Positions 1 to 25,870 of a DNA stretch of 34,230 nucleotides are shown in pieces (positions within the stretch are counted from its first letter, which is position 1; each line of letters opens with the position of its first letter). Position numbers and translations under genes: made by a program. Source of the stretch: Nemertoderma westbladi (taxonomy: Eukaryota > Animalia > Xenacoelomorpha); the NCBI GenBank assembly GCA_032718475.1, contig JAUCBJ010001976.1, positions 1 through 34,230 on the forward strand, given 5' to 3'. The notes below the pieces were generated by a model that was not told the origin of the DNA, made no database searches, and worked only from the letters and a program-made list of their open reading frames with translations.

Positions 1-1
1 G

Positions 2-2641
2 GACGATATTGACTTCTCAATCCCAGATGTGGACGTTAGGAAGGTATCCATCATAGTAGGAATGGACTGCCCGACGGCCCGCGAAAGAATGCAAACGGTC
101 TTCGGCGAAGACAAGCAGTCTGACCCGGTGGCAATACTGACACCATTCGGGTGGACGCTAAGTGGCCCAATCAAGAGCAAGATACCATTTAGGATGTCGG
201 AGACATCAGGATGCATGTTCGCGGGAACTATGCAGGAAATGAGTGATGAGAGAGCAGAGGAGCAACTTAAAAGACTGCTCAGACAGGATTTTGAAGGATT
301 AAAGGAGACCGGGGTCGGGACCTCGGTGGAAGACAAACAGGCTCAGCAGAGCGTAGAGGAGTCTATGAAGTGCGACGAGGGGCGGTACACCATAGGAATG
401 GTATGGAAACTACCGAAGTTACCACTGCCCGATAATAGAGGGATGGTACTCACGAGACTCCGCAAGCTGAAACAAACTCTAAAACGGAGCCCCGAGAAGA
501 ATGAGTACATCCACAGAACGATTAAGAAGTACGTCGAGAAAGGATGGGCCGTGGAGTTACCGGTCGACGAACCGAACACGGACAGGACATATTACCTGCC
601 ACTCCGCGTGGCTTTAGACCCAAAGAAAGGTAAACTGCGGATGGTAGTTGACGCATCGGCAAAGACCAACAGAAAATGCTTAAACGACTATCTGTTAGAA
701 GGTCCAAACATATACAACTCGGGGATAGAGGTCCTACTTAGATTTAGAAATGGGAAACACGCCCTCACATGTGACATAGAAGGCATGTTCAACCAAGTCC
801 GTGTAACGGAGGAAGATAGCGACAGTCAACGCTTCTTGTGGTATAACCTCGAGGAAGAACCGTCAATAATACCGGCATATAAGATGGTAGTACAAAACAT
901 GGGAGCCAAGTCGTCTTCATTTACGACGACTATGGCAGTGAGAGATACAGTGAAGGGAAAGGAAGATAGATACAGCACTAGGGCCGTCGATATGATTCGA
1001 CGCGGCTTCTACGTAGACGACGGAATGGAGTCTGGAAATACGGTTAAGGAGATACTGGACACAGGGTGCGAGGTTCGCGACATCCTAAAAGGATCCAGCT
1101 TTAACCTGACCAAATTCCAATCCAGTTCGGAGGAATTTATCAAGGCGATAGAGGACAAGAGACCAGAATCGACCATGGATAATCCCACAACAGCCAAAGG
1201 GCAGGACATGGCGAACAAGAGAACAGAATCTCAACAGAAGGCATTGGGAATCGTGTGGAACAGAGAGACAGACGAACTGAAGTATCAGCTGAGCCAGGAG
1301 GGCGCAGACATCCACACGAAGAGGGGCTATGTGTCGTATATAGCAAGGATATACGATCCCCTAGGTCTAGCATACCCATTATTAGTCACGGGGAAACAGA
1401 TACTCAAGAGAGTATACAAATTGAAGGATGAGTGGGACGTAGAGGTACCAGAGGAAATCAAGAAACAGTGGAGTAAGTGGACAGGAGACTTGGAGAAGAT
1501 GGGAACATACAACATGCCACGAGTGTATTTCCCGGATGGGAACATGACGAATATGGACCTACACATGTTCTCCGATGCGTCGTTGGAGGCGTACGGAGCG
1601 GCACTCTATTTAGTACAACGAGAGGGGGCTCACAAGCCCAGACTGGCCTTTAGCAAAGCAAAGTCAACGCCGCCAGATTCAGCATCAGTTCCCAAATTAG
1701 AATTGACAGCTGCGAGACTAGGAGTTAGAGCCACAGCCTACCTAGTGGATACTATTCCCAACATAGTGGAGACACACTACTGGACGGACTCCATGGTAGT
1801 GCTTGGTTGGATACATAACGAAAGGACGAGATACCCTATATTCATCGCGAACAGGGTGGACGAGATAAGGGCGACCACAGAATTGGAAAGGTGGCACTAC
1901 TGCCCAACGGATGAGAACCCAGCGGTCTTGTTATCACGGGGCGTGGCACGCCACACTTTCTTAAAAAAGGAAGGATTGTGGCAACACGGGCCGCAGTTTC
2001 TGAGCGACAAGGAGGCCTGGCCGCCGATGAGAAAGGTGGACCCGGACTCAGGAGAGGTAGTGTCAGAAGGAGAAGAGGGAGATTCAGAGGAAGAAGAGAT
2101 ATACTCCCAGATGGTGAGGGAGATAAGGGACGTGCAACCTAAACCAGAAGAACTGTGCGATAACCCAACAGATAAACTCCTCAGCTACAGCTCTAGTTGG
2201 TATAAGACCAAGAAATTAGTGGCGTACTGGAGAGCCTTCGGGAATTTCCTCGCGGGAGTTGGCAAAGACAAGAAGATCAGGACAACCATAGATCTGGAAG
2301 GAGCGGCCAAGGCAGTCATCCGCTATGAACAACGGAAGAACTATGGCGACGAGGTGGAACGCGTCGGTAACCAACAGCACCTCCGACGGGACAGCGAGCT
2401 GATCACGCTGTTGCCACAACTTAATGACGACGGGATTCTAGTAATGAATTCTAGGGTGGGATACAACAACAGCATAGTCGTACCACCGAAACCCATCATC
2501 ATTCCCACAGGATCACCAATAGTCCACCAGATTATCTGGGACTCCCATAAGTCGATATTGCACGGGGGCACCAACCGAACTCTCACGGAGATAAGGAGGA
2601 CTTTTTGGGTCAAGCAGCTGAGGAAGAAGGTAAAGCGGTAG
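2..2641 (+). CDS. pol: BEL/Pao Pol: protease C-terminus, reverse transcriptase, RNase H, start of integrase Zn finger
   Basis: Frame is open from the window edge. Motifs: IIVG and TPFGWTLSG (protease end); YYLP, KLRMVVDAS, LNDYLLEGP, DIEGMFNQV, FYVDD (RT); IYDPLG, HMFSDAS, PKLEL, WTDS, FIANRV (RNase H region); H-KSIL-H (integrase). Expected NPAD reads NPAV at 1925-1927. Confidence 0.95.
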   Translation, partial: DDIDFSIPDVDVRKVSIIVGMDCPTARERMQTVFGEDKQSDPVAILTPFGWTLSGPIKSKIPFRMSETSGCMFAGTMQEMSDERAEEQLKRLLRQDFEGLKETGVGTSVEDKQAQQSVEESMKCDEGRYTIGMVWKLPKLPLPDNRGMVLTRLRKLKQTLKRSPEKNEYIHRTIKKYVEKGWAVELPVDEPNTDRTYYLPLRVALDPKKGKLRMVVDASAKTNRKCLNDYLLEGPNIYNSGIEVLLRFRNGKHALTCDIEGMFNQVRVTEEDSDSQRFLWYNLEEEPSIIPAYKMVVQNMGAKSSSFTTTMAVRDTVKGKEDRYSTRAVDMIRRGFYVDDGMESGNTVKEILDTGCEVRDILKGSSFNLTKFQSSSEEFIKAIEDKRPESTMDNPTTAKGQDMANKRTESQQKALGIVWNRETDELKYQLSQEGADIHTKRGYVSYIARIYDPLGLAYPLLVTGKQILKRVYKLKDEWDVEVPEEIKKQWSKWTGDLEKMGTYNMPRVYFPDGNMTNMDLHMFSDASLEAYGAALYLVQREGAHKPRLAFSKAKSTPPDSASVPKLELTAARLGVRATAYLVDTIPNIVETHYWTDSMVVLGWIHNERTRYPIFIANRVDEIRATTELERWHYCPTDENPAVLLSRGVARHTFLKKEGLWQHGPQFLSDKEAWPPMRKVDPDSGEVVSEGEEGDSEEEEIYSQMVREIRDVQPKPEELCDNPTDKLLSYSSSWYKTKKLVAYWRAFGNFLAGVGKDKKIRTTIDLEGAAKAVIRYEQRKNYGDEVERVGNQQHLRRDSELITLLPQLNDDGILVMNSRVGYNNSIVVPPKPIIIPTGSPIVHQIIWDSHKSILHGGTNRTLTEIRRTFWVKQLRKKVKR

Positions 2642-3654
2642 TGGGGCAGTGCCAGACCTGCCGACGAGCGAAGAAGGAGCGAGCCATACAAGAGATGGCA
2701 CCACTACCAGCGAGTAGAGTAAGACAGCACGACCCGCCATTTACACATTGCGGTGTGGACATGTTCGGGCCGATAAAGATCAAGGTGATGCGGCACACGG
2801 AGAAACGCTACGGTATTATCTTCGTATGTAACAACACGCGGGCGGTAGGGATAGAACTCGCCCAAGATGCAACCGCATCAGCATTTATTAATGCATTAGA
2901 AAGATTCAGAGACTGCAAAGATGGGATGATCGCAGTAATGTACTCCGACAGTGGAACCAACTTTGTGGGAGCAGAGAACGAGATGGCAGAGGCCTTGGAC
3001 ATCTTGGAAGGGGAGGAAGTCAGGGCGGCCATGAGACGACGACAAGTAAAGTGGGAAAGAAGGACGCCGTATGCACCACATACACTAGGATGCGTCGAGA
3101 GACTGGTGGGCAGTTCAAAGCGTCTTATGACGAAGCTAATGAACACCCACATGGTCACTGAGGACGTCTTGAGGACAGTGCTTGCGAAGTGCGAGGGGAT
3201 CATTAATAGCAGACCGCTATATCCGGAGAATGATGACCCTGAGTCATTAGATGTGCTGACACCCAGCCATTTTCTAATGGAAAGGCCAGCGACCATCGAT
3301 ATGCGGGGTGTAGACCCAGATGATATACATTCCCGCCAGAGTTGGAAGGTCGCTAAAGCAATAAGCGCAGAGTATTGGAGGAGGTGGGTTGAGGAATACC
3401 TGCCCACGCTTCACAAAAGAAGCAAGTGGAGGAAGTCAAATAGGGAGTTAAGAGAGGGAGATCTCGTAATCGTTACGGATGATACTATCATCAACAACCA
3501 GTGGCGGTTGGCGAGAGTCGTAGGCACTTACTCCGATGAGGACGGAAGAGTCCGATCGGTAGAAGTGCGGATAGGTGGAAAGATCGGTGCGAAAGACAGA
3601 AAAACCTACAGGAGAGCTGTAGGGAAATGCTGTCTATTAGAAGGGGCACCTTAG
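2636..3654 (+). CDS. pol: BEL/Pao integrase (continuation of pol after a 1-nt frameshift near 2633)
   Basis: CQTC, QEMAPLP, GVDMFGP (D), SDSGTNF (D), GCVERLV (E), INSRPL, LTPSHFL, YWRRWVEEYLPTL, WRLARV, DGRVRSV. The junction GTA AAG CG GTA GTG lacks one base relative to KVK-A-VVGQC. Confidence 0.95.
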
Positions 3655-3735
3655 GGTGGAGTTAGAATGTAGTTTAGTCGTCCAAGTTTGGACTGAGGGG
3701 GGTGGGATTGAGGGCGAGATGCCCTTCCCACACAC

Positions 3736-3774
3736 AAAAAAAAAAAAATAAAAAAAAAATAAAATAAATAAAAA
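3736..3774 (+). repeat. Internal A-rich tract
   Basis: About 39 nt of A interrupted only by single T residues, ~80 nt after the integrase stop. Confidence 0.9.
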
Positions 3775-3776
3775 TT

Positions 3777-4245
3777 AGAGTTAGTTAGTTAGGAGTCAGT
3801 TAGAAGGTACATAGTACCTAGAGTTAGTTAGTTAGGAGTCAGTTAGAAGGTACGTAGTACCTAGAGTTAGTTAGTTAGTTAGTCAGATAGAAGGTACGTA
3901 GTACCTAGGGTGAGTTAGTTAGTTAGTTAGTCAGTTAGAAGGTACGTAGTACCTGGAGTTAGTTAGTGGAGTTAGAGAGTAGTAAGAGGGTACGTAGTAC
4001 CGTTAGTAGAGTTGGAAGTTAGTAAGAGGGTACGTAGTACCGTTAGTTAGAGAGTAGTAAGAGGGTACGTAGTACCGTTAGTAGAGTTAGAGTAAGAGTA
4101 GTAAGAGGGTACGTAGTACCGTTAGTTAGAGAGTAGTAAGAGGGTACGTAGTACCGTTAGTAGAGTTAGAGTAAGAGTAGTAAGAGGGTACGTAGTACTG
4201 TTAGTTAGAGGGTAGTAAGAGGGTACGTAGTACCGATTAGTAAGA
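3777..4245 (+). repeat. Tandem array: 11 copies of a GGTAC-GTA-GTACC palindromic core in TTAG/GTAG-rich spacers (~34-48 bp period)
   Basis: 11 cores counted. The first four are AGGTAC-RTA-GTACCT and the last seven are GGGTACGTAGTACYG, giving two unit subtypes. Confidence 0.95.
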
Positions 4246-4716
4246 GATAGAGGTGGAGGGGTATACATAGTATAGATATTAGTCAGTAGTTAGTAGCGAG
4301 AGGGGGGCATATGAGTACAGTTGGATAGATCGTGTAGGCCACGCGACATATACTGCTGTACTGCACAGGCCCACAGCGTAGGTCAGAATGTGGATTATGA
4401 AATAGAATAATCCATAAGCAATAAATAGTAGGAATAGATTAGAAATAAAAATAGAATAAATAGGGCTAAGAAAATTACAAATTATGGTAACAGGAGGGAA
4501 ATTATTCTGGAACATAATTAAAGCAACGGACAGAAATTGCAAATAAGGTACATTTGATAGCTACGAAATTAAGTAATAGAAATTAGGCTAAAAGGGCATA
4601 GTTAGATAGGAAATAGGCCATTATCGGACCGTACAGACCATCCTAACTGCATCACTCACTTATATTGCGCCTTGGTAAGGCACCACCTTATAGGTGAGCG
4701 ATCGGAGGAGTTCGAA

Positions 4717-6498
4717 ATGGCGGGAAAACTGATCAGAAAGAGAAAGGTGGAGTCAGGAGGAAAGGAGATACTGGTGGATTTCACCGAGAGGCATCCGGAA
4801 GAGAAGACGAGAGGATACTATGAGAGGTTGGAAAAGGGTCACGCGGCACGAGCGCTGCAGGACCACTTCCGGGAGATGCACGAACAGCGGCTGGTCGGGA
4901 CCTACGGGACGCCGTCGCTGGACAACGCGATCTTCCAACACTTCCACTATGTGGTGAAAGGAGACGAGGCGAAGTTCGGGATTCCGAAGTACGCGAGGGA
5001 GTCGCCGAGGAAGGATTGGAAGAGATTCATAGAGTCCGTCAACAGGGGAGGATATATGATCCTAGACGATGAGGGAACCGTGGAAGACGAGGAGGGTTCG
5101 AGACGAGGATCAGCGGGGTCGGCCAGGACCATACTCCTACATTTGGCCGCGCCAAATGGGGACATTTTCTTATTCGATCTAGGAACGTATGGGAAGAAGG
5201 ACGGGCCGAAACTAAACCGGTTGCCGAAAGCGGTGCAAGTCTTGGTAAGAGAGAAGTCGACGACGAAGGTGGGATCGGCGATTCGCGAGGACGCGGAGAG
5301 AATCATCGGTCCGGATGCCACCAACCTCCTGGATATGCAGAAGGTCTTCATGGCTATGACGGCACCGGATGGGTTGGGGGTAGTCGGGAACACAGGCCAA
5401 TGCGGGGCAGTGGCAATGGGCCAACTATTGGGGCTCGTATGCCACAAACCGATGGACTGGGGGAAGTTCAGGGAGGAATACGGAGCAGAACTAGCGAACT
5501 CGCTAAAGTGGGGAGCGAGACCGGGAAAGCAAGAGGTATATCAATTCCGCAGAGGAGCGATAAAGGTATATCAGAAGCGATATATCCTGCAGGAAGATTG
5601 GATGATGATAAGTTTGCTTAACTTATTCATGACCGTGGTTATCGAGAGGGAACCAGCGGCATTTCTGTTATCGGGATCACCCCTAAGATACAGGAGAGCC
5701 TTTAAAACGGCCCTCGACGGTCTGGTAGACCACCCGGGGCTGAAGGGGGAGTCGGTGTACTACAACAGCCGACATCTGATAGACGGGGAGACAGATACGC
5801 CGTATCAGAGATGGGAGCAGCTAGAGACGGATAGACGAGAGGCAAAGCGACTGGAAGAAGTCGCTAGACGGGAGAGGATAGAAGCAGAGGAGAGGGAGGA
5901 GGAGGCCAGGACGCAGAGTTACAGCTTCGAGGAACAGGCAGGCTTAGACGAACTTCGTTGGACTTCATCAGGGAGTTCGGGGGAGTCTCTAGGGCGAGAA
6001 TTGGGATGGACGGTGGGATCGCCGAAACAGTCGACGTCGGGGTTGAAAGCGATGCCCATACCAGCGGGCGCCGAAGGCGACCAACCGCCAAGGAAGTTAA
6101 GGGAGCTAGAGGGATGGAGAGCTACGGGCGAGAGCCAAGGCGGGAAGGGACATAGTGGATCCATCGGGATACCGGGGTTGGAGCCACTGCCAGAGGAGGA
6201 GGAAGACGACGACGAGTTAGGAGGGGTGCCGCCCATCGAGAGGATTGGCCACTCGGACACGGACTGGGTTGGCGGGAGGGTGGTGACGGCCAGTGGGGCG
6301 AGGGCCTTCTGGGATAGACCCGACAAGCGGGCCTGGGTGCACGAGGAGCCGGCGATGGATTTCGCAGGGAGCACTATCAGGTTGGGCGAGCAACCGGGGA
6401 CGGCACCACGGGTAGTATTCGGGGAGACGATGCCCGAGAGGGGCGGAGAGATCGACGTAGACAGGGACACCAACGTGCAGAAGTTCGCCTACCAGTGA
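4717..6498 (+). CDS. Extra ORF, N-terminal part: DEDDy 3'-5' exonuclease-like domain (RNase D/WRN/MUT-7/EXD family), charged helix and disordered linker
   Basis: ATG in GAAATGG context. ExoI YMILDDEG (D 5065, E 5071); LLHLAAPNGDIFLFDL; LPKAVQVLV; ExoII TKVGSAIREDAERI (D 5290); NLLDMQ; G-x3-M-GQLLG-x-K; ExoIII YQKRYILQED (Y 5581). Basic KLIRKRK at the N-terminus. Confidence 0.75.
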   Translation: MAGKLIRKRKVESGGKEILVDFTERHPEEKTRGYYERLEKGHAARALQDHFREMHEQRLVGTYGTPSLDNAIFQHFHYVVKGDEAKFGIPKYARESPRKDWKRFIESVNRGGYMILDDEGTVEDEEGSRRGSAGSARTILLHLAAPNGDIFLFDLGTYGKKDGPKLNRLPKAVQVLVREKSTTKVGSAIREDAERIIGPDATNLLDMQKVFMAMTAPDGLGVVGNTGQCGAVAMGQLLGLVCHKPMDWGKFREEYGAELANSLKWGARPGKQEVYQFRRGAIKVYQKRYILQEDWMMISLLNLFMTVVIEREPAAFLLSGSPLRYRRAFKTALDGLVDHPGLKGESVYYNSRHLIDGETDTPYQRWEQLETDRREAKRLEEVARRERIEAEEREEEARTQSYSFEEQAGLDELRWTSSGSSGESLGRELGWTVGSPKQSTSGLKAMPIPAGAEGDQPPRKLRELEGWRATGESQGGKGHSGSIGIPGLEPLPEEEEDDDELGGVPPIERIGHSDTDWVGGRVVTASGARAFWDRPDKRAWVHEEPAMDFAGSTIRLGEQPGTAPRVVFGETMPERGGEIDVDRDTNVQKFAYQ

Positions 6499-7281
6499 CT
6501 CCACAGACCGCGGAGATCGCTTGGGACGAAAGACGACGTGGGGCGGGAGACATTGGTACTCGGTTGCGACTACTGTGGGAGACAGACCCACCAGGAAAGG
6601 AGCTGTTTGTACCGGTTCCAAAAGGTAACCTTTTGTCTCTACTGCCGCGAGTCGAGCCATAGGATGGGGGCGTGTCCACGGTTGCATAACCGATGTCCGA
6701 AGTGCAACTTTCGGGGACACTACGGACGCCAGTGCGACTGGATGGACGACGAAGAGAAGTTCAGAAGATTCGAGGAGTGGGCCGACGTCGGGGCCATGAC
6801 GCGCCAGCGCATGAAGGCCCAGGAGTTCAAGTGGGGTTTCTTCCTTATCAATCAGGAGGCTCACATGGAGATCATAAAGCGGAGGCTACCGTTTACCTAT
6901 CAAGAGGTAGCAACGGCGGCGTCGTATGCCGGGGTGATGAACACACAAAGGTATTTGGACAGGTGGACGCCACAGAACCGAGGGGAGTTTAGGGATTTCC
7001 TGGCGGAGCACGTGCCGCGGGCAATGAAGATGATCATATGGGATGCCACCAGGGGGAGACAACAGGGCCACTTGGAGGGGCCACCCGCGAAGCGATATCG
7101 GGAGCTGATAACACCAGCACCCAGGGAGCCAACGACCGGGATCAGTAAGGAGGTGGCGGCGAGGGTCCGAAGACAGAAAGCGGATCCCAGAGGAGCGGTA
7201 GTGACCAGGAAACGACCCAGGGAGGAGGACGGCAAAGGGAAAGACTTGAGGTGGTTCCCAAAGTCAGGGGGGATGAACTGA
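6499..7281 (+). CDS. Extra ORF, C-terminal part: three CX2CX4HX4C zinc knuckles and a basic tail; same frame as 4717-6498
   Basis: CDYCGRQTHQERSC, CLYCRESSHRMGAC, CPKCNFRGHYGRQC (6565-6735). The frame is open immediately after the TGA at 6496-6498 (LHRPRRSLGTKDDVGRE...). C-terminal RVRRQK...RKRPR is NLS-like. Confidence 0.85.
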   Translation, partial: LHRPRRSLGTKDDVGRETLVLGCDYCGRQTHQERSCLYRFQKVTFCLYCRESSHRMGACPRLHNRCPKCNFRGHYGRQCDWMDDEEKFRRFEEWADVGAMTRQRMKAQEFKWGFFLINQEAHMEIIKRRLPFTYQEVATAASYAGVMNTQRYLDRWTPQNRGEFRDFLAEHVPRAMKMIIWDATRGRQQGHLEGPPAKRYRELITPAPREPTTGISKEVAARVRRQKADPRGAVVTRKRPREEDGKGKDLRWFPKSGGMN

Positions 7282-7960
7282 GACTTCAATGTGGTACGCC
7301 TGGAAGGCGCCACGTGGGACGTACGAACTATTAAGTACAAATTCAAAGTGATGCAAATAATTAAATAAGTGCAATTATATGTACGTACGTAGTAATCAGT
7401 AGTTTAGAATTGAAATATACGTTCGAAGTAAGTACTATAGTCATTCAACCTTTCTCAATTAGCTACTGGGACTGGGGGGCTAACTGACTATGGTACTATG
7501 GACGAGACACCAGACGACTTCACATTTCTTGAGTGCGACGGCACAAAGGGGGAGTGAGATTCGTCAGAAGGGATGGGGTAGTCAAAGGGAGGTCGAGTAG
7601 AGGTGATAGTGCAGAGTGCAAAGAGAGTGCGGATGCAATTCAAGTGTGTGGGAGGAATAAGAGGCTGAGTGAGGGACAGGGAAGTCCGAGAGTTAGAGTG
7701 GTAGTGAGGAGAAGTAGAGGAGAGCCAGGGTGAGAACAGAGTACAGTTAGAGTGGCGAAGTGTTGGGGAAACAAAAGTCGTGTGAGGAGCGCACGATCGG
7801 CCCGACATGGGACGCCAGGCAAAACGGGTAGCAATATCATACCCATCGGGAGCGGCCTGGAAAGCCGGCTCCGAAAGAAAATAGTTCCACCCCACACCCG
7901 ATAATAGATCGGGATCCAGCGGAATTGTAGCGCACTTGAGGTGGATGCTATCTTCTCACC

Positions 7961-7982
7961 GGGAAGATAGCATGGGGGGGAG
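7961..7982 (+). promoter_or_regulatory. Polypurine tract (plus-strand primer) of element 1
   Basis: GGGAAGATAGCATGGGGGGGAG directly followed by TGTT, the usual BEL/Pao PPT-LTR junction. Confidence 0.7.
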
Positions 7983-8369
7983 TGTTAGCTTATTCAATTC
8001 CGCTAACCCAAACCCATAAAGTTAACCGTTAAGCAATATTGGGAGCACGAGGTTGATTACCCAACCTCGTGTCACCCCAACAAAATGGGAAGGAGAAACA
8101 CAATAAGGGTCAGGGGCCAAACCCCTAACCGAGAGAGAATAGGTGGAGTGAACGGGAACACTCCAAAGGGCGCCAACAGGGATATTAGCCAATCAGGGGG
8201 GGAAGCATCGGCTAGGTACAGTAGCAAGGCCAAACCGTGCAATATATCATTAGGTACCAGTAATCATCTCACTTCAGTTATCACAGTGTTATTGGTGTTA
8301 CAGTAGCAATAGTTTAGCTAGGGAAGTACCGGGATTTTAATTACCGTTTCCCGCCTTCCGCTTACAACA
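7983..8369 (+). repeat. Putative 3' LTR of element 1
   Basis: Starts TGTT after the PPT. TATA-like AATATAT at 8241 and Inr TCAGTT at 8274. First AACA end is at 8369 (alternatives 8434, 8460). The 5' LTR is not in the window, so this cannot be confirmed by pairing. Confidence 0.6.
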
Positions 8370-9161
8370 ATATTTATCTTATCCATTATCTATATCTATA
8401 CTATACATATCCCGAATATTATATACAACGAACAACGTAAACTCTTTTATCTTTCACACACGGCGGGGATGCGTGAATTGACAACCGGATAAACGGGGAT
8501 CCTTCTTGGATCCCGTCACATGAATAAAGCACAGGTTAGCGGACTCAGTAAGTATTTGGATGAATTCATAAATAGTCGTATCGTTTTGGGACTTGTTATG
8601 CGGCAAAGTGCTGATATGGACTTACGTTGGAAATTTGCTGATATTTATTTGAAATCCTTAATATTGGCGAATAAAAGTGCGATTGATTCTCTCAAAACAG
8701 CTTTTAACGGTAAAATTTAATGCAGAAATTTTCCCAAACATATCATATTTAAGTTCTGTAGTAAAACTGATATACTGTAAAACAGTGAAGAAGTGGGATA
8801 CTACTTTGTTTCAGAATCAATTTCAATGTAGGCAGTAATGGCTTTGAAATGTAAGTCGAGATGACATAACTTTTGGATAGTCAATATTTTGGAGGAATTC
8901 TATTAAAGAAAATTATATTGAGCTAACAAAATCTCAGCTAGTACTGTGGTTATTTGGTTCTGAAAGGCCCGCTATTGGTCCTAATATTTCAGTTATTTTC
9001 AAGGAATGCACTCCTACGTTTTAAATAATGACGAAATACCTAAATATTGATTTCCTTTAACTGAAATATATAGCAATTACACTTTTTCACAAGCACATAA
9101 GCACATTTCCTTAGCTTTATACATGCACAGGTACAGTAGGTAAATGGCCAAGCACACTCAC

Positions 9162-9197
9162 TATACTATAATGCCATCTATCTTGCTCATCAATCTT
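9162..9197 (-). CDS. Possible 36-bp host exon (KIDEQDRWHYSI)
   Basis: Minus strand TTCTAG|AAG...ATA|GTGAGT; phase 0 and compatible with the upstream candidate exon. Confidence 0.35.
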
Positions 9198-9627
9198 CTA
9201 GAACGATTTTTCAGGAATGAAATAAGAATGATAGTGTCCATTACGACACATGTCCATTAATGTGTACAGTAGCGCAATACATTAACTTACTGAATAACAC
9301 TATTCAAATGCTCTCAAAAGAGGAATTGTGGAATTTTATTCTTAGAGTTTAGGATACTTAAAGGCTACATTAAAAATTCATAATCTTCATGGAAATTTGA
9401 AATTTTAATAAATAATTTGAAAGCGGCACAACATACTATGAATGCAATAAGGTTGTTGAACGAGTGTCCAACAACACCTTAACATTACTAAACTTTAAAA
9501 CACTTTATTATAATTTTCACTGCACAATATTGTCTTCCTTGAAATGAATGAAACTATATTACCTACCTATATATATGTAAGGGCTCCGTCATAAGTTATT
9601 AAATAGGTGGAATATATGATAAACTAC

Positions 9628-9801
9628 CTGGTTTTTTAACTGCCTATCAAACGCATCATGTTTTTGCTGCAGCAACCTCTCCTCTCGCTTATTCGTTTTA
9701 ACAGTATCTTCTTTGAACTCACTTCTCTCTGTTTTAACACCAGCATCAGATGACTTCCTCAGTCCAGAAGCTCTCGGAGGTCCCAGGGTATAAGCAGCCA
9801 T
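9628..9801 (-). CDS. Possible host coding exon (MAAYTLGPPRAS...DRQLKNQ), unknown product
   Basis: GC-richer island in AT-rich DNA encoding a natural-looking charged peptide; ends at a CAG|GTAGTT donor in phase 0. Confidence 0.4.
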
Positions 9802-10690
9802 TCAAATTAATTACTATTAGTTTATACCATTGTTTGAAAGTAATTAAGTTTAATTAATTGTTTTATTCCATTACTTAATGATTTCACGCTGTATAAATTT
9901 ACCCAATTTGGAAGTTTGGTTTCCCTTATTGACTATTACTTACAAAAAATATTAATACTAACAAGGAAAGGCCATACAATTTCCTTTGTTATTGGTATTA
10001 AATGTTGTTTAAATTTTTTTTGGGCATTTATGAGATACGTAGTTGTACATTTAGATCAGTAAAATGTTTACCATACTAATAGTGAGTGTATTATTATTAT
10101 ATTGTATGTTAAGTTGGGTAGTATGGTTTTGAGTGGTGATGTTATATGCCAACTTTTATGACTACTATGATGTATTTATAATTAATCTTCACCTTGAGGT
10201 TCTCACAATTATATATGGCACATTCATGGCCGAAGGATTTATTTGAATAGCTCTGGCTACACTGACCCACAATTATAATACATTTTTAGACTTATATGTT
10301 TGTAATTAGTCAAAGTATTAGGAAATATATACCAAATATATATGGCCAATGAGTGTGTTATACACTTGGTTGCACTTGCATTATTCCGATGTTTTATAAT
10401 TACATTCGCGAATAAAGGCTAAAGGTAATTAAATAAGAGTATTAAACTCGATTCGGATTATCCTATGGATAATATTGATATCCACCATGCTACCTATGTA
10501 TTGTATTCATACATAAATTTCCTATATGTAAGACCTCTTATAACCAACGATGGTGTCAATATAATGTATAAGTCACAATAACCTCAGTTTAAATTCCTAC
10601 CTGACACTGTATATCTAACCTAATAACATTGATATCCATCATAATATAATATAATGTATTGTATTCATACATACATTTTGATTGTAGGGC

Positions 10691-10828
10691 CTTATCGCCC
10701 CTTGCACCTTTATCGCCCCTCCTGGTCCTTATCGCCCCCTGGGAACTTATCGCCCCTCAAATCGTCCTTCATCGCCCCGGGGTCTTTATCGCCCCTGGGG
10801 CTTTATCGCGCCTGGTAACTTATCCCCA
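10691..10828. repeat. Minisatellite, 7-8 copies of TTATCGCCCC with ~17-21 bp period
   Basis: Core visible at about 10691, 10709, 10728, 10746, 10767, 10785, 10802, and partially at 10819. Confidence 0.85.
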
Positions 10829-10860
10829 CTGTGACAAATATGAATTTTGAATGTGAGTAG

Positions 10861-11150
10861 CGTTGGTATTGGTATTGGTGTTGTTTATTAGTGTCATAAG
10901 AGTATGTATCCATATACTGTAGTTAAATTACAAGACACATGACATACATTGAATTGCCTAAGTAGGCCTATAAATGTTATAAATAAAAACAATATGTTAT
11001 AAAATATGTTATAAATAGAGTATTTTAAAATCATTAATAATTAAACTACATGTATACTGGCATAGGTAAAATTGGAATAATATGTTCAAAGGTCCAGTGC
11101 AAAAAATACATTAAAATAAATCGAGTTGATTAAAATAGTAACATTTAGGC
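10861..11150 (-). mobile_element. LINE 3' end (AATAAA plus (CCAATA)n-type microsatellite tail)
   Basis: Minus strand ends AATAAACAACACCAATACCAATACCAACG, a typical non-LTR tail. Which element owns it is unclear. Confidence 0.45.
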
Positions 11151-11183
11151 TCAGTAAGCTAGGGTATGCCTGTACGACGTCAA

Positions 11184-11304
11184 GGGTGATCTTCCACAGT
11201 AAACCCTTCCACTCTGTTTCTTAAAAGAATGCTTGTTCACCATCAAGGGTGATCTTCCACAGTACACCCTTCCACTCTGTTTCCTAAAGGAATGCCTGTT
11301 CACC
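11184..11304. repeat. 121-bp direct repeat, left copy (itself ~2 x 63 bp)
   Basis: Matches 13456-13576 with 2 mismatches; CAAGGGTGATCTTCCACAG occurs at 11181 and 11244. Confidence 0.95.
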
Positions 11305-13455
11305 TACTAGGATCGGCATGCTGCATTGCAGCTGCATTTTTAAGAATGCTGTGCCGGCCGGCTTGTCAACAAAATTGCACCGCCACAACTCCCTATGACC
11401 CATGAAATTTGCTAGATCATCCGCATCTTTAAGGCCAGTGTCCTTTAAGATGCGTCTCAAGAAAGTCATGGGCTGTCCACCATGCTTATTCACTCCATGA
11501 GGCTGCCAAAGTACAAGATTATGCACTGGCTGGTCCTCACGGCGAAAGCAATGTCCTGCAAAGCGGAGGCGATTTTGTTGTAGTGTCAAGCTTGGGGGAA
11601 CCAATGAGACACCTCCAATGTTATATAGTGTATGGTTGGAGATGTGTGCATTGTACTTGACACAATGAACCCGGCGTAGCATTCTTGTGAATGTGCCATC
11701 CAGAGATTTGGTGTCCTCAGCAGTTAGAGCCCAGCATGGACTCCCGTAGAGGAGTACTGGAACTACTGCTGCTCTAAATAATCGGACCTTAAGTTTCCGA
11801 TTAATTCTAGGTGACTTCCAAATCCTGGAAAGCCTATTCAAGGCTGCCCATGCCTTTCCCTTACGTATTCGAAGGTCCTCACCTGACTTCCGGATCCATG
11901 ATCCCAGGTAACAGAAGTCGTCCACATGCTCAAGCATACCATCCTTTGAGCTTATGCTCATCCGATCAGAGACTTGCTGAGGACTTTCAAAGTTAACTGT
12001 CAGAATTTTGGTCTTGCTGGAGTTAATAAAAAGACCAACACTAGAAGCAGCATGTTCTAATGAGCTGAGGAGCCGTTGGACTCCCTCTAATGATTCTGAG
12101 AGTACTCCTAAGTCATCAGCAAAGTCTAGATCAGTTAGGTACTTGGCAGGATTTCCTCGACTTCTGGAGCCAGTAGGTGGAGTTATCATCACCCCATCAT
12201 CATTATGATGATCTAAGGACATGCGTAGAACATAGTCAACCACAATAATGAACAAGAATGGTGCAAGTGTGTCTCCTTGGAGGACGCCCCATAACACTTC
12301 AAATGGTTCTGTGTCACCGTCAATAGTAGACACAAATGTTGTCGAACCATCGCATACAGATCTGATTGCTGCAATAATTTCATCAGGAATCCCATATAAT
12401 GAAAGTATGCTGAACATCGTGACCGAGAGACTGAATCAAAGGCCATGAAGAATTCAACAAAGATAACAGCCAGATGCCTATCTTTCTTTTTTTATAATTC
12501 TTCAATTATCCTTCTAAGTGCCAAAATGGGCTCCATGGTCCCACGACCTTTACGGAACCCATTCTGATTTCCACGGAGCAGTCTCTCAATGGGATCCCTG
12601 ATGCGATTTAATAGAATCCTATTGTATAGCTTTGCAGCAATCGAGATCAATGAGATTCCCCGAAAAGAACCATAGAGTGTTAGGTTGCCCTTCTTGGGAA
12701 CTGGCACCAACTTATTTGTTTTCATTTCTTGTGGGATTCTTGTTGTTCGGTACATGTCTACTATGATGGGATAGATGAGCTTTAAACACTCAGGTATTTT
12801 AAAGACCTCAGGGGGAACACCATCTACTCCACTGGCACGATTGGTCATAATGCTCTTTGCAGCAGCCTTCACTTCTGCAAAGGAGATATCGCCAATGGGA
12901 ATATCTGGGAGTACAGACTCAGACACTTTTACTTCTATAAAGTTATCAGGCAATACCCTGTCATTATTGAGGAGCTTTTCAAAGTGGGCTTTCCAACCAT
13001 TGAGGCGATCGGCTGGTGATTAAGCCTTAACCTTGGTGGTTGGTTGGCTTTTCCACCCAGTAAGCAGATTGATCGATTTCCATGCCTGGGATGATTGCCT
13101 GCTGTCGTCAGCATCATTGATGGCATCAACCTGTTGGTTTATTAGCTCCTGTAGATTAACAGAGTACTGCCTGTTCAGGGACCTAGAGGCAACCTTAACT
13201 GCATTCTTGGCCGCTGTAGTCTGTTTGAGTCGGGACTCTTTCTGCGCCTTATGAAGGTCATTTCGGCACTTCTGAATTTTGTTGTCAGTCCAGGGGGCCC
13301 TTTTCCTGTTTCGAGGGTATACAGGAACTGTTTCTGCAGCTGCTAACTTAATTGCTTCTGTAAAGGCAGTATAGCCCTCACAGTGATCTGCCGCCTCAGA
13401 GGCAAGAGCCTCATACCTGTTGCTCAGCTGTAGTGTGAAGCTGGTTCGCCACCAT
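11284..13455 (-). mobile_element. RTE-clade non-LTR retrotransposon, 5'-truncated, frameshifted RT pseudogene
   Basis: Three ORF pieces (13020-13455, 12492-12953, 11284-12417) with LQLSNRYEAL, RASGVDGVP, PVPKKG, FRGISL, QNGFRKGR, AFDSV, GVLQGDTLAPFLF, LDFADD, FCYLGS, RLRFAGHCFR. No endonuclease motifs are retained. Confidence 0.9.
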
Positions 13456-13576
13456 GGGTGATCTTCTACAGTAAACCCTTCCACTATGTTTCTTAAAAGA
13501 ATGCTTGTTCACCATCAAGGGTGATCTTCCACAGTACACCCTTCCACTCTGTTTCCTAAAGGAATGCCTGTTCACC
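13456..13576. repeat. 121-bp direct repeat, right copy
   Basis: Same sequence and orientation as 11184-11304. Confidence 0.95.
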
Positions 13577-14022
13577 ACAAAAGTGGAGATCCCTTTGATG
13601 TGAACAATTACAGACCAATAGCGATACTACCCATGTTTAGAAAAATATATGAATGCTTAATTAATACTCAATTACTATCGTACCTGGACCACTACTCACT
13701 ACTAACTGAATGTCAACACGGTTTTCGAAAAAAACGGACAACTACTGATGCAGTTTTGATTACGACCGAAAAATCAGACAATGATGCCTTGATTTCAACA
13801 ATTCAGCTTGCCCCATACCACTTGACCTAAAAAAGCATTCGACACCCTAAACCATAAAATCTTATTAAAAAAGTTTGAATCTTATGGAATAGGAGGAACT
13901 CCACTGAAACTACTCTCAGACTACTTAAAAGCAATCGCTCCCAAGTTGTCACTATAAATAATGTACTCTCAGACCAACTAATCCTTCTCTGCGGTATACC
14001 TCAAGGTTCAAATATCTCGCCA
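13577..14022 (+). pseudogene. CR1/L2-group LINE reverse transcriptase fragment
   Basis: HKSGD, NYRPIAILP, QHGFRKKRTT, then after frameshifts LDLK-AFDTLNHKILL, YGIGG, CGIPQGS. Confidence 0.85.
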
Positions 14023-15239
14023 ATCTCGCCAGTTTATTTGTATGCATTTACTCTATTATAACATTTGTTTTAATAGATTTTTATAAATATTAACTATGTA
14101 ATATTTAAGACGGGCACCGATTTATTCCAGAACTTGTCTGGGGACGTCAACCACTGATTCTAGAGTTTTGTCTTTCAAGTATATCGGTGGGTGCCGCGAT
14201 ATCTTAATCGACTAGAATTACAGATGGTCAAAGGGTTTAACAGATTTATTTTGCGTTGTACGCTACTGTTAAAGGGACATCACGCTACTATCTGTATTAT
14301 TTAATATACGGTATGAGAGCAATATTGTAAGAAGCAATGTCAGTGAGAAGAGGCAAGTCGTTTCCAAGGTCTACCCAGAGCTTGGTTTAGCCGAGACACG
14401 AGGATCTGAACTTTGCATTCCTAATACTCTACTTACCAATAATACTTGAGTATAGTAGGAGCTTTATTGTACTTTAATAAGTACGGATATTTCATCTTAC
14501 TGTAGTCACGCATTTATAATATGATACGGACAGTAAGGAAAGAGAAAAATAATTATTTCTCGCCGTTGCACTAAATATAATATTAAGTAATTAAGTAAAA
14601 AAACGAGTATATATTGCACTAATCTACTAAATAATCGCTAAAATAACATTCTGCTAAATAAAATTAAAGAAAACGATTATAATAAAATTACATAATAATA
14701 CATACATAAATATAAAAATAATAAAAACAAATATAAAATAATATAGTCACACACCCACTCCAGACGCTGTTACGTTGGGGAGTCCCTAGACGGTCAGGGC
14801 CCTAAACCGATTAGGTTCTCTGTTCGCAGAACACCGAACACTATTCCGGCCACGGAACTAGTCCAGCAGAATGCCTTTATAGAATCCTGGGATTTGGGGG
14901 ACGAGAGGATCTCAGCAACTAAGCGAAAACGAACAATAGGATGTTCCTAGACCCCCCCCAAAATTTATCTAGAAGACGTTTTCCCATATACATTACGTTT
15001 CAAAAGTCTACGGTTCTCCGGCTAGGGCCAATTTGAGTCAAAAAGTCAGCTTCCCTAGCAACCTCGTTGCTATGGAGATAAGTCCAGAACCGCTAATGCT
15101 ACGGTCTTGGGACCGGCGCCAAACTGTAGGCAGCATATGGGTTTACCTTCACAACCTTTTTTTTGGAGCGATCAGATCATGATCTTGACCATGATCAGCA
15201 AAGATCAGTTTTGATCAGCAATCGGACACTCAAGGCTTG

Positions 15240-16500
15240 CTCCAATCGAAAAACTTAACATTACAAAAAGATTCAGCGACCCCACATTAGTCATGATTCC
15301 CGTTAAAAGATTTTCAAAAAAGTGAATTCTTCCTGGTCAAAACGCAAGATCATGATCGCGCAAAGATCGGATGTCGTAAAATCGTAACTAAGCATTTTGG
15401 ATATAAACAATTACTGTAGGAAACGTTCAGAACACCGCCCTGAGTCGATTAAAAAAAAAATTGGCTCGATCGGACAGCCGGTTCTCGAGATCTGATACCT
15501 GATCATTAAAGATCATATTTTTTGGTTATTTCCAATTTTCTCGAAAACTTTGTTTGAGACCCCCGATTTTTTTTTTACGAATCGACTTCTATGGTGAAGG
15601 GGCAACTTTTGAGCATTTCGAAATTTTCAAAAAGCGATTTGATCAGGCCGCGATCAGAAAAGATCGTGTTTTTGGTTTTATTTCAAAGACCAAGTCCTGG
15701 GAGTTCACCGTATGGAAAAACTTAACATCACAAAAAGATTCCTCACCCTCGAATTAGGGGGGGTAGCCAAAATTTTGGCATAAAAAAGTTCAAGTCTAGT
15801 GGGTCAAAACTCAAGATCATGATCGCGAAAAGATCAGCGTATTTAAAATCGAATCTAAGCATTTTTTAAATAAACATTCATTGTAAGAAATGTTCAATGG
15901 TCTATTCTGAGTTGATTTAAAAAAAATTGGCTCGATCGGTCAACCGGTTCTCGAGATCTGATACCTGATCATTAAAGATCATATTTTTCGGTTTTTTCCA
16001 ATTTTCTCGAAAACTTTGTTTGAGACCCCCGATTTTTTTTTTACTAATCGACTTCTATTAAGAAGGGGAAACTTTTAAGCATTTCGAAATTTTCAAAAAG
16101 CGATTTGATCAGGCCATGATCAGGAAAGATCATGTTTTCGGTTTTATTTCGAAGACCAAGTCCTGTGAGTTCACCGTATGAAAAAACTTAACATTACAAA
16201 AAGATTCCTCACCCTCGAATTAGGGGGGGTAGCCAAAATTTGACCATAAAAAAGTTCAATTCTAGGGGGTCAAAAGATCATGATCGCGAAATGATCAGTT
16301 TTTTCGAAATTACTTCTGAGCATTTTGGGGCAAAACTTTCAAACTAAAAAACATTCACTGGAGTGTTCTAAGTAGATTAAAAAAAATTTCGACTCAATAG
16401 GCCTACCGGTACCGGAGATATGGTCGTCCAAAGTCTGCTTCCGGTAATTCGAAATTATTTCGAAAACCCTAGATCGAATTTTTTTCTTGAAAAAATGTGA
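15240..16500. repeat. GATC-rich tandem repeat, ~2.7 copies of a 461-467 bp unit; probably the interior of a non-autonomous DNA element spanning ~14.8-16.8 kb
   Basis: GATCATGATCGCG at 15348, 15815, 16276; TTGGCTCGATCGG at 15461, 15927; AACTTAACATYACAAAAAGATTC near 15252, 15719, 16185. Confidence 0.85.
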
Positions 16501-17576
16501 ATGTACAGTTAGTAAACCCGCATCTAACGATATATCACAATCCATATTTCGGATGACAGGTACCGGTGAAATCAGACTTTACCGAAAAAAATTTAAATTT
16601 TAGGTACTCATGTCTGACTATCTCGAAAACTATAACAGGTATGGAAATACCTTCACTGCAAGAAATGTTCGCCTATCCAATGCGCTTCAAACTCTGTGCT
16701 CGGATTTTGCATAGTGTCAAAACCTACAACTTAACCCCCCCAGCGGAGGGAACGGAGTGACCGGAGCGCCAGTACTATCTTTCATTATTATATAGTAATA
16801 AGGGTGGTGGGTGGGGTAGGTGGTGAATACTATTTATAGGGTGGAGGGAGGGTCTAGTATATTACTTTAGGATATTTGATTTCTTTGCAATATAGTTTAG
16901 CTGCCTCAGTCTTATTTGTAATATGTTATACATTATACCAAATTATATCAAGTTTAACATATTACATTGTCTACCTGTAGGAGAAATATACAATGTAGGG
17001 CTCATAATATATTTATAAATAGATTTAGTATATTTACATTGTATAACAGAGTGAATTGATACTATTACGGTATTATAGTAAAGATTCCGCTTTGATATAT
17101 CTGATCAAAAGGCAATTTCTGGTAAATTATTTATTTCACTATCTTGGGTATATCATTCAATTTCTAAAACTATAATAATAAACATTTACTTCACTTCTTG
17201 TTTACTCGCATGGATATATTGATATAAAACACATCAGTATAATATCTTATAGGGCCAAACGCAGATTAATCGGAATAATATGTTTAATTAATTATTATTA
17301 CAATTGGCACATTGAAGTAAGTAGTACATGAGTTTGATAAAATAATTATGAATCCGTATCTTATTCTACTTTGTCTATATGGTTATGTTATATAATAATG
17401 TTACTTTATCACTTTGGTTTAAACTCATCTCCTTTATAACTACTTACTACCACTACTAACTACTATTACTACTACTACTGACTACTGCAGAGTTAGGTGT
17501 ATATTATAAGAGGATGGGGTTCGCGATTATTACTTATTATACTAGTGCCCCTCGGCTATAGAGAGTCCACCCTCGG

Positions 17577-19871
17577 TTACTTACTGGATGTTTGTTGGAT
17601 TAGGGAGGTGGTCGTGGGAAGAGTATCTTGCCTTCCATAGTTTCCGGATAGTTCTCTGTCTCTTTCCAGTAAACATAAACGACCAACTGGGCGATTGAGT
17701 TGCTGCGTTTCGAATACAATTCCAGGTTTCTTAAAGTTACGTCGCATGACGACGAGTTCTACCGATCGCACTAAACCATCATCGGAGATATGAGTCTCGA
17801 TGATACGACCTGTCTGCCACCGCTTACGTGGAAGATCTGATTCCACAATAAGGACCATGTCTCCGGCGCTGACATTTTCTTGCTGCGCAAACCACTTGGT
17901 TCGAAGTTGTAGCGTAGGCAGATAATGTTTTTCGAAATGGTCAGCGAAACGACGGGATAATAACTGCATAAGTTGCCAAGTTTGTCGGCAGTATTCGTCT
18001 CCGTCCGTGATTTCCGATCGTGGGAGCATGGCTACAGGTTTCTTCAGTGGGAAGTGCGCGGGTGTTAGCGCTTCCAGGGAGTCGGGACTCGATGAGACTG
18101 GCATAAGCGGTCTCTCGTTAAGATAGGCGGCGATTTCTTCCATTAACGTCCGCAAAAGTTCGTCGGTGAGATACGCGCGGCACGGCACTATAAAGTGAAA
18201 TGCGGTCTTCACGCTCCTTATTAATCTCTCCCAACTTCCTCCCCACCAAGGGGCGTCGGCGGCGTTGAAGGTCCAGCTAGAAGCTGTTACCCTTAGCTGT
18301 TCGTCCACCTGTCTTTGGTTCCAATCTTTGACGTAAGCCTTAATTTCATTGTTGGCACCAATGAAGTTCGTCCCCTTATCAGATCTCATCGTGTTGCTAG
18401 TTCCAAAGCGAGCGATCTGTCGGCGTAAGATCAGTATGAAGCTGTTGGTAGATAGATCATTCACCATATCGAGATGGATAGCTCTATAAGTCATACAGAC
18501 AAAGATGACACACTATCTCTTGACTATAGTCCTAGCACAATATACTTCAATAGGGCCAAATAAATCCACACCGGTATTTGTGAAGGGTGGTTCATAGAAG
18601 CTTACTCGTTCCCTAGGTAATTCTGCCTCTCGCTGTGTTAAAGGCCTACTGAATGCTTTCCTACAGGGTATACAGTTCCTAAGAACTTGGTTCAGAGCTC
18701 TACGGGGTTTATGAAAATAATAGCGAGTTCGAATTTCGCTAAGAACTCGTTCTCTACCAGCATGGTAAAGCTTGCTGTGAACATCTACAATCATCTTGAT
18801 TTGTATTTCAAGATTTCTAATGAGTATGGGGAACTTAGTGTCAAAGGATAATGGAGCATTAGTTAGTCTCCCTCCAACACGTATCAACCCATCTATCATT
18901 GTGCTAGAGAAACGATCCCTTAAGCGCATCTGTGGATTTCTCAACAACAGGAAATACTTATCGGAATATTCATAGCATTGCAGGAGTCTCAGTATCTGCT
19001 TATTGGTTTCTTCATGCTCCTGGTAACTGATCTTCTCCGTCAGAAACTTATCTGATACTTTGTATTTGGGAAGATCTTTAATAGCATGGACCTGCTCGGA
19101 TGTCAGTGGAGCAGTATCACTAGCGATCTTCGTCCGGGAGTAGTGATGATGAAAGCATCGCTTTAAATACACGACGGCCTTACAAAGCTGATTCCAGGAG
19201 CTATAGTGATTTATCGCTCTCTGCAGGAGAGGTGAGAGTCCCTGCGAGACATCTGGTGTTCCAGATTTCCAGTCTCTCTCTCTGATTTCCACAACAGACT
19301 TATTTGTGGCAAGGGAGTTTAGATCCACAGCGTCGTCCCCGGAAATGTGTAGTACAGACAGATCTATCATGGGTTTAAATAACTTTGATTTACTCGTCCG
19401 GGTTTTGGGTTTGACTTTCTCCGCTCCCTTGGCTTGTCTAATCTCAGCCGTGGTGAGATGAGGAGGCCATTCATCCTCTTCTTTACTTAGGAAGTCGGGT
19501 CCACCTAACCAGTCTGGAGTATCTATCAGTTCTTGAGGAGTTGCTCCTCTGGAGGCGATGTCGGCTGGATTAATCGTCCCAGGGCAATGTCTCCATTGAT
19601 CTACATTAGTGCGACTAAGTATAATGGCTACTCTGTTGGTAACGAAGACGCTGAACTGACAGACTTCATTGGTTATATACTCCAAAACGAGTAAAGCATC
19701 AGTCCAATAGACAGTTTTCTCCAGTGGATAGTCGATCTGTTCTGTTACATTCCGGCTGATGGCTGTAGCGTATAGAGCCGCCTTTAACTCCGCTCGAGGA
19801 ACTCGTAGCTTGTTGTTTATCAAGGCCTTAGAGGTAACCAAGGCAACTTTGATTCCATTCGAGAGTTTCAA
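17577..19871 (-). pseudogene. pol: RNase H C-terminal half and integrase of element 2
   Basis: VPRAEL, YWTDA, FVTNRV, NPADIASRG, RVGGRL, H-SKLY-H...CIPC, GVDLFGP, in-frame TAG at 18513-18515, RSDKGTNF, GSWERLI, LNERPL, DGLVRSV. Confidence 0.93.
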
Positions 19872-25827: not shown

Positions 25828-25870
25828 GTTTGATTGTACAGTTGAATGCCTACTACTATAAACGAGTATT

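Follow-up and report, generated by a model that had tools for sequence, protein, structure and literature searches.

Third open reading frames (ORF3s) encoding DEDDy exonucleases are known from Juno and Vesta, long terminal repeat (LTR) elements of bdelloid rotifers. The accessible text of the principal report gives their signature as DEED, has them gained at least twice and shared with Terminons, and presents no demonstration of activity (PMC5408684); further reports, to the extent of their available text, repeat the observation (PMC5718144, PMC6431247, PMC6338049). Exchange of DEDDy ORFs among retroelements from a common pool has been proposed in the portions at hand of two of these papers (PMC6431247, PMC5408684). 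As for BEL/Pao elements, the only extra genes named in the part available of a recent source are fusogens, namely the F-type env of Drosophila Roo and a chuvirus-like glycoprotein of mosquito BEL elements (PMC13524379). Here we describe a BEL/Pao element of the xenacoelomorph Nemertoderma westbladi with an ORF3 of a different kind, predicted to encode a DEDDy exonuclease domain followed by three zinc knuckles. The window, by which we mean the whole stretch of DNA analysed, comprises 34,230 nucleotides (nt), positions 1 to 34,230 of contig JAUCBJ010001976.1 (assembly GCA_032718475.1). An original prediction, made by a model from the letters of the window, had proposed such a gene in the env position.

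A third gene in a highly repeated BEL/Pao family

The pol-bearing element is a BEL/Pao LTR retrotransposon, as judged by its Pao RNase H region, its DUF5641 domain, its domain order, and a polypurine tract (PPT) with a TG...CA LTR (Table 1). The upstream part of pol holds the reverse transcriptase with YVDD at 1010, the Pao RNase H region and the start of the integrase zinc finger; in the window copy the reading frame shifts near 2630-2640. Reverse transcriptase, RNase H motif (1559) and integrase motifs (2752-3457) follow one another in BEL/Pao order. Besides DUF5641, Pfam returned Peptidase_A17 (PF05380; expectation value, E, 7e-40) and Integrase_H2C2 (E 4e-6), which bears out the family assignment of the original prediction. 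DUF5641 was present in all 120 database matches listed for pol, nearly all of them with Peptidase_A17, the best being 40-42% identical. None of 25 viral contigs held a relative of the integrase. The 5' part of the element, including the 5' LTR, lies outside the window.

ORF3, a single plus-strand frame opening at its ATG, lies between the integrase and the PPT/LTR. It had been described as a frame of about 855 codons, purine-rich like pol. The frame is there, with 854 codons and a purine fraction of 0.63 versus 0.61 in pol, though ORF3 is higher in G; a stop that interrupts it had gone unmentioned. The seven exonuclease motifs quoted in the original prediction were all found where it had read them, in this one frame, and its placing of the integrase stop, the PPT and a TG-starting LTR was equally accurate. 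A further question was whether the LTR might lie at about 3.7 kilobases (kb) rather than about 8 kb. It lies at about 8 kb, and an LTR at 3.7 kb was rejected, tandem repeats alone being present there.

Table 1. Features of the window, with coordinates, strand and the basis on which each was identified
Feature	Position	Strand	Basis
pol of the BEL/Pao element, open at window 5' end	2..2641	+	ORF list, Pfam, motifs
Integrase core and DUF5641 end of pol, stop 3652-3654	2551..3654	+	Pfam, DUF5641 E 7e-25
Spacer from integrase stop to ORF3, 1062 nt	3655..4716	+	Tandem Repeats Finder, contig depth
Candidate ORF3 expression signal	4642..4694	+	Pyrimidine content, TAG/G; inferred from sequence
ORF3, 854 codons, broken by one stop here	4717..7281	+	ORF list, translation
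Predicted DEDDy/RNase D-like 3'-5' exonuclease domain	5005..5670	+	Atlas, BLASTP, profiles, MAFFT, guided model
Motif ILDDEG	5059-5076	+	ORF3 translation
ExoI D117, E119	5065, 5071	+	Within ORF3 exonuclease domain
Motif LLHLA	5134	+	ORF3 translation
Motif GDIFLFDL	5158	+	ORF3 translation
Motif LPKAVQVLV	5221	+	ORF3 translation
Motif KVGSAIRED	5266-5292	+	ORF3 translation
ExoII D192	5290	+	Within ORF3 exonuclease domain
Motif LLDMQ	5326	+	ORF3 translation
W265	5509	+	Within ORF3 exonuclease domain
Motif QKRYILQED	5572-5598	+	ORF3 translation
ExoIII Y289; E293 at Asp position, D294 adjoining	5581; 5593	+	Within ORF3 exonuclease domain
Charged, probably helical segment 3' of exonuclease domain	5806..5919	+	Sequence, composition
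Premature stop, codon 594, private to window copy	6496..6498	+	Translation, contig depth
Three CX2CX4HX4C zinc knuckles (6565..6735)	6565-6606, 6634-6675, 6694-6735	+	Sequence
Polypurine tract	7961..7982	+	Sequence
3' LTR, 538 nt, TGT...ACA	7983..8520	+	Ends read; contig breakpoints; depth drop
RVT_1 fragments, by eye two non-LTR retrotransposons	11284-13508 and 29480-31525	-	Pfam
Repeats: ~467-nt unit in three copies; 33-nt tandem array, >26 units	15245-16389 and 31997-33112		
Second, distinct BEL/Pao element, several stops	17577-25878	-	DUF1759, Peptidase_A17, Integrase_H2C2, DUF5641
Unmatched 348-codon frame upstream of second element's gag	24832-25878	-	ORF

Does ORF3 belong to the family as a whole, or only to the copy in the window? 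We compared copies through contigs of sequencing runs aligned to positions 1-10000, using four of six listed runs (X1, X2, X3 and X5; three samples, three studies), the best-matching of which may be the window's own source. Summed contig depth is not copy number and was used only to tell repeated from unique sequence. In X1-X3 it reaches 26,000-92,000 over pol, 12,000-68,000 over ORF3 up to 7014, and 13,000-26,000 over 7015-7682; the spacer is multi-copy throughout (lowest bin 5,159-16,676). Depth in these runs never falls below 5,000 before 8684, and beyond 8685 it drops to about 20-100. Run X5 is far shallower and uneven (depth 1.9-474); six of its contigs, running into unlike sequence beyond 8520, fix the end of the LTR. 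Since depth stays in the thousands from pol to the LTR end and then falls to flank level, ORF3 is part of the family. The element is highly repeated, ORF3 is its family-wide third gene, and the claim that it belongs to the element rather than being a separate insertion stands.

Very improbable by comparison is that ORF3 is a separate repeat or a host gene fragment inserted into the window copy. Such an insertion would fit the depth dips at 4343-4676 in the spacer and after 7015, and the fact that no contig spans pol to ORF3, all of which weigh against our reading; it would also fit the contigs with other upstream sequence that join at 7826 in two runs. Yet between pol and LTR the depth in X1-X3 is never at flank level, and no joint skipping the whole of ORF3, as at an empty site, occurs among the best 15 of 65 joints. 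Moreover, a joint from 6731 to 7266 (depth 375-421) ties the interior of ORF3 to the 3' untranslated region, and strand bias and third-position variation follow the same pattern as in pol. We infer that pol and ORF3 are physically linked in the other copies too.

In its exonuclease region the ORF3 protein is under purifying selection. Over 5020-5660 we considered the best-supported 40 of 75 variable sites, which are not a random draw. Thirty-four of these 40 changes are synonymous, versus a fraction of 0.33 expected for transitions (binomial p 2e-11, a value that is indicative only, as the rows are the best supported and the sites are not independent). Third codon positions hold 33 of the 40, and the count-based ratio of nonsynonymous to synonymous change (dN/dS) is about 0.09. 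The other two plus-strand frames would make only 7 and 3 of the 40 synonymous, and the antisense frame that shares third positions 30. No insertion or deletion occurs among the listed sites of this region, and in all 40 rows D117, E119, K184, D192, W265, Q286 and Y289 are unchanged. Codons 293 and 294 vary only synonymously in these rows, in about 90% of X1 depth, so that the Glu-Asp pair they encode is the state of the family.

The window copy itself has decayed, and other copies lack its stop. The stop codon is absent in more than 99.6% of depth in all four runs (three samples): depth reading otherwise at 6496-6498 amounts to 68,966 of 69,007 in X1, 53,359 of 53,423 in X2, 37,739 of 37,858 in X3 and 228 of 228 in X5. 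Programmed read-through was rejected, the stop being private to this copy. The exonuclease domain (residues about 97-330) is intact in the window copy. Five near-fixed differences of the window copy in ORF3, picked from the best 40 of 1,299 variable rows, all fall at first or second codon positions, as expected of a dead, drifting copy.

Several observations concern the flanks of ORF3. The spacer contains an A-rich run (3736-3774) and, at 3776-4252, tandem repeats of 35-79 nt found with Tandem Repeats Finder; their units measure 35, 43-44 and 79 nt, unit number differs among copies, and a short core of the repeats reappears at 7385-7403, 3' of ORF3. Multi-copy joints from 6731 to 7266, 6731 to 7297 and 6536 to 7291 (depth 161-421) delete either the knuckles of ORF3 or its C-terminal region, and depth over 7015-7682 is below that over the knuckle region. 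At 7826, 11 contigs of X2 and 10 of X3 join from different upstream sequence, and depth climbs over 7683-8016, ahead of the LTR start. A related family, or a derivative that arose by deletion, may have the final 160 nt and the LTR in common with this element, but not its 3' region.

The predicted exonuclease domain and the zinc knuckles

Very probably, the exonuclease region of ORF3 adopts a DEDDy fold. We consider this likely on account of a lead from the ESM Atlas, the score of a self-built profile and the collinear motifs. For positions 4900-5820, a Werner-like (WRN-like) PF01612 cluster ranks fourth in the Atlas (0.89, recognition 2756), which we treat as a lead only. BLASTP against E. coli RNase D gave E 6e-4, at the W-x-x-R-P motif. 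A profile built from 47 bacterial PF01612 domains scored 8.1 bits on residues 96-330, a value reached by 0 of 1000 shuffles (best shuffle 7.7), and none of 1000 shuffles reached the ORF3 score with a sub-profile of 24 sequences. Local hhalign covered 155 columns at E 9e-4 and brought ExoI, ExoII and the Trp motif into register. When ORF3 was aligned by MAFFT with 45 of the 47 domains, D117, E119, K184, D192, W265, Q286 and Y289 each fell on an invariant column, and E293 occupied the column of the ExoIII Asp, following an insertion of ~12 residues. An AlphaFold model guided by the DEDDy alignment reached a predicted local distance difference test score (pLDDT) of 73 and a predicted template modelling score (pTM) of 0.72. 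It matches RNase D, RICE1, Nibbler, Egalitarian, Rrp6, EXD2 and NrnC (best Z 12.1, root-mean-square deviation 3.6 over 167 residues). On this model the nearest DEDDy subfamily is not nameable, since Z scores are tied and the model is guided.

A considerable body of results weighs against the assignment. The Atlas score is below 0.9, the family occurs in only 38% of the WRN-like cluster, and the top three matches are unnamed. A profile of the 21 RNase D sequences alone gave 0.6 bits and was beaten by 11 of 1000 shuffles. The hhalign probability is only 24%, with ExoIII placed out of register, and global hhalign to both sub-profiles was unsuccessful. At ExoIII, Glu replaces Asp after the insertion of about 12 residues. 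In 300 trials with shuffled sequences, 7 of 11 invariant columns were attained 8 times and 12 conserved columns 51 times; on the strength of this control the MAFFT column count was given little weight. The guided model is circular, its fold having been supplied by the DEDDy sequences in its alignment, and speaks for compatibility only; a single-sequence model had a pLDDT of 32 and no fold match whatsoever. PF01612 gave no match in Pfam up to E 10, so the Pfam match anticipated for the domain failed to appear and ORF3 would be a remote relative only, not a filed member. The exonuclease region was also blank in NCBIfam, in PHROGs and among PDB sequences (best E 0.09, an unrelated protein). HMMER with residues 62-378 found no homologue among 1.84 billion representatives, and word searches with residues 1-400 and 500-800 found none either. 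A plasmid search of this region was likewise blank, and of 41 pattern matches in metagenome contigs none was confirmed.

Could the exonuclease likeness then be accidental, ORF3 being a real element gene for an accessory protein of another, unknown kind with zinc knuckles? The blank family and homology searches, the poor single-sequence model and the modest alignment shuffle control would all suit this explanation, which we nevertheless regard as improbable. Three methods (Atlas, BLASTP and profile) reach the same family independently of the motifs on which the original prediction relied, and six or seven motifs stand in the correct order over about 190 residues. The sequence resemblance is weak in absolute terms, though for two of three profiles none of 1000 shuffles equals it; identity to the aligned bacterial PF01612 members is 11-20%. 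The RNase D-like fold that had been proposed is thus likely, with ExoI and ExoII in register, while the ExoIII Asp has turned out to be Glu293.

The top three Atlas clusters (0.89-0.90) are unnamed and consist of proteins of ~213 residues which, among members of known phylum, come most often from basidiomycetes. These may be further DEDDy-like proteins that lack annotation.

If the fold is accepted, metal-dependent catalysis is somewhat favoured, because D117, E119, D192 and Y289 are all present and ExoIII retains an acidic residue. The predicted catalytic site would read D-E-D-E or, with a shift of one residue, D-E-D-D.

CCHC knuckles bind single-stranded nucleic acid. Five CX2CX4HX4C patterns occur in the six frames of the whole window, and three of them are those of ORF3, present as had been described. 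Pfam gave zf-CCHC_4 at E 0.01 and zf-CCHC_5 at E 0.029, both below cut-off, and the Atlas neighbours of the knuckle half are CCHC proteins (0.77-0.88, low recognition). A Gly/Pro/acidic linker extends from the charged segment to about 6495; 3' of the knuckles follow a region of ~110 residues lacking any match and a basic tail. In agreement with the original prediction, which saw neither signal peptide nor membrane anchor, the N-terminus is basic and hydropathy alone, used here in place of a dedicated predictor, makes no membrane segment evident in ORF3 (highest 19-residue Kyte-Doolittle mean 1.35). An env-like role was rejected for want of a hydrophobic segment.

What ORF3 might do for the element

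We tentatively propose, from the domains read in the sequence, that ORF3 is an RNA-binding 3'-5' exoribonuclease that blunts host small-RNA silencing of the element; this is a possible role, short of a probable one. ORF3 would be expressed as a protein of its own from a subgenomic RNA, by way of a signal before its ATG. A candidate for this signal is the 50-nt stretch with the highest pyrimidine content in the element, found within 4642-4694 (pyrimidine fraction 0.62 versus a mean of 0.38, standard deviation 0.08); it ends in TAG/G, 23 nt upstream of the ATG, and would be compatible with either a splice acceptor or an internal promoter. The match to the window begins at 4613 in two divergent contigs. 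The knuckles would hold single-stranded RNA while the nuclease shortens exposed 3' ends. The least certain step is that the substrates would be silencing small RNAs, or slicer fragments feeding their amplification. The DEDDy family does act in small-RNA pathways, with MUT-7 and Nibbler as examples in the available text of two sources (PMC11347159, PMC5622571). An anti-silencing role would explain the abundance of a family burdened with an extra gene of 2.5 kb. Certainty falls as the argument moves from the fold through catalysis and RNA as substrate to silencing, and two points count against the proposal: no datum separates RNA from DNA as substrate or ties ORF3 to silencing, and bdelloid copy number, according to the part at hand of the rotifer report, did not clearly track ORF presence (PMC5408684).

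The complete scenario, in which a BEL/Pao element independently captured a DEDDy domain, fused it to knuckles and, in place of env, uses it to destroy or mis-trim host Piwi-interacting RNAs (piRNAs) or small interfering RNAs (siRNAs), is rather doubtful. If ORF3 did act on small RNAs, the retrotransposon would be countering the piRNA/siRNA defence directly, by means of an enzyme.

It may instead be that the exonuclease fold is weak or dead and that ORF3 is an RNA adaptor, like Egalitarian or EXD1, which localises, packages or shields the element's RNA. The Glu at ExoIII would suit an adaptor, as would the long low-complexity linker, the charged helix and the three knuckles. There is precedent: the Egalitarian domain, according to the accessible text of one study, binds RNA stem-loops with its putative catalytic residues dispensable (PMC13186709), a structure with an I-factor retrotransposon signal exists (PDB 9rw6), and EXD1 and Maelstrom appear as inactive derivatives in the available text of the rotifer report (PMC5408684). 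Loss of catalysis sits poorly, however, with the retention of the ExoIII Tyr and of acidic residues at three canonical positions in a protein diverged beyond any detectable homologue, and with the conservation of the acidic pair E293-D294 among copies. We therefore hold the adaptor to be somewhat unlikely.

An active nuclease could also serve the replication cycle rather than counter silencing, by proofreading or trimming the 3' ends of complementary DNA (cDNA) for reverse transcriptase or integrase, or by maturing the 3' end of the element's RNA. The substrates of DEDDy members include single-stranded DNA besides RNA, and the knuckles resemble nucleocapsid fingers that could bring the protein into particles. 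Processing of 3' ends was proposed for the bdelloid ORFs (PMC5408684) and fidelity was suggested for the WRN-class DEDDy gene of ampeloviruses (PMC8297929), in both cases in the text available. A point against this role is that related BEL elements do without the gene, as far as a metagenome scan over 19 of 64 parts and the window itself show. From the scan we took the best 80 of 559 confirmed BEL loci, 14 of which have at least 1.5 kb downstream and 8 at least 2.5 kb. In these 80 loci there was no profile match at E 1 and no ORF3 match better than E 0.36, and the second BEL element of the window has no ORF3 match either. Even ORF3 itself, though it ranks first among 143 window segments, scores only weakly with the profile (E 0.06), so that a remote relative could be missed in the metagenome loci. 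ORF3 is, moreover, set 1 kb apart from pol and not fused to it, and its copies are highly variable, with no hint of raised fidelity. A role in replication is thus unlikely, and the exonuclease cargo looks lineage-specific.

Five of the surveyed loci (L145, L197, L173, L161 and L156) have long same-strand ORFs 3' of the integrase. These were rejected as third ORFs, being by eye gag starts; a gag-like frame follows the integrase after 0.2-0.9 kb, which hints at copies lying head to tail, or at circularised assemblies, that share one LTR. The integrase of the second BEL/Pao element of the window is 31% identical to that of the first, and no LTR pair was found for this second element. The remaining transposon fragments and repeats of the window are listed in Table 1.

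Comparison with known systems

Juno and Vesta are placed in Ty3/gypsy. As far as the available text of Rodriguez, Kenefick and Arkhipova (2017) goes, Juno1/2 and Vesta2/5 are like our element in having an RNase D-like DEDDy third ORF after pol, in the env position and lacking membrane segments (PMC5408684). One acidic position is altered in both, giving DEED in Juno/Vesta and Asp-to-Glu at ExoIII in ORF3. The same text mentions dUTPase and GPY/F features and does not name BEL/Pao (PMC5408684), whereas the host of ORF3 is BEL/Pao. By description, the only level at which they were compared, ORF3 further differs in its 854 codons, its three CCHC knuckles and its highly repeated family. Selection is strong among ORF3 copies, in contrast to the bdelloid ORFs, for which that text reports no significant departure from neutrality (PMC5408684).

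Terminons, the giant Athena/Penelope-like retroelements, also carry DEDDy as accessory cargo; as described in the accessible parts of two papers they are, unlike the ORF3 element, not LTR elements, lie at telomeres and have many ORFs (PMC6431247, PMC5408684). Roo and the mosquito BEL elements share with ours a third gene besides gag and pol; in the available text theirs is a membrane fusogen (PMC13524379), whereas ORF3 has no hydrophobic segment and is predicted to be a nucleic-acid enzyme. Outside the retroelements, the ampeloviruses CaAV-1 and PAVA likewise combine an RNA genome with a captured WRN-class DEDDy accessory gene, but these, as far as that text is at hand, are plant RNA viruses with small stand-alone proteins and clear domain matches (PMC8297929).

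With cellular PF01612 proteins (RNase D, NrnC, WRN, MUT-7/Nibbler, EXD1/EXD2, Egalitarian, Rrp6 and RICE1) ORF3 shares the order ExoI D-x-E, ExoII K-x7-D, W-x-x-R-P and ExoIII Q-x-x-Y, at Z 10-12 for the guided model. It differs from them in its low identity to the aligned bacterial members, in the missing Pfam match, and in the Glu and insertion at ExoIII. We know of no cellular PF01612 member with a fusion to three knuckles.

How much of this is new? The original prediction knew of no BEL element with such cargo. DEDDy ORF3s in LTR elements had in fact been published in 2017, with the same candidate roles in the text available (PMC5408684), and the novelty would hold for the BEL/Pao host and the knuckle fusion. 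In the open-licence literature we found neither a BEL/Pao element with a DEDDy gene nor such a gene joined to knuckles, although the supplement of PMC5408684 might list non-rotifer relatives. Rotifers thus already provide the kind of gene. What appears new is its occurrence in BEL/Pao, its fusion to knuckles, the failure to detect any homologue, and the evidence that it is under selection. Whether the bdelloid ORF3s are active or useful was left open in 2017, in the part of that report at hand (PMC5408684); the present family offers what those ORFs lacked, namely numerous copies, an exonuclease domain clearly under purifying selection, and a compact domain amenable to assay. If ORF3 is a DEDDy exonuclease, such cargo would be no bdelloid oddity but a gene regained in another LTR superfamily, which would point to a recurring advantage.

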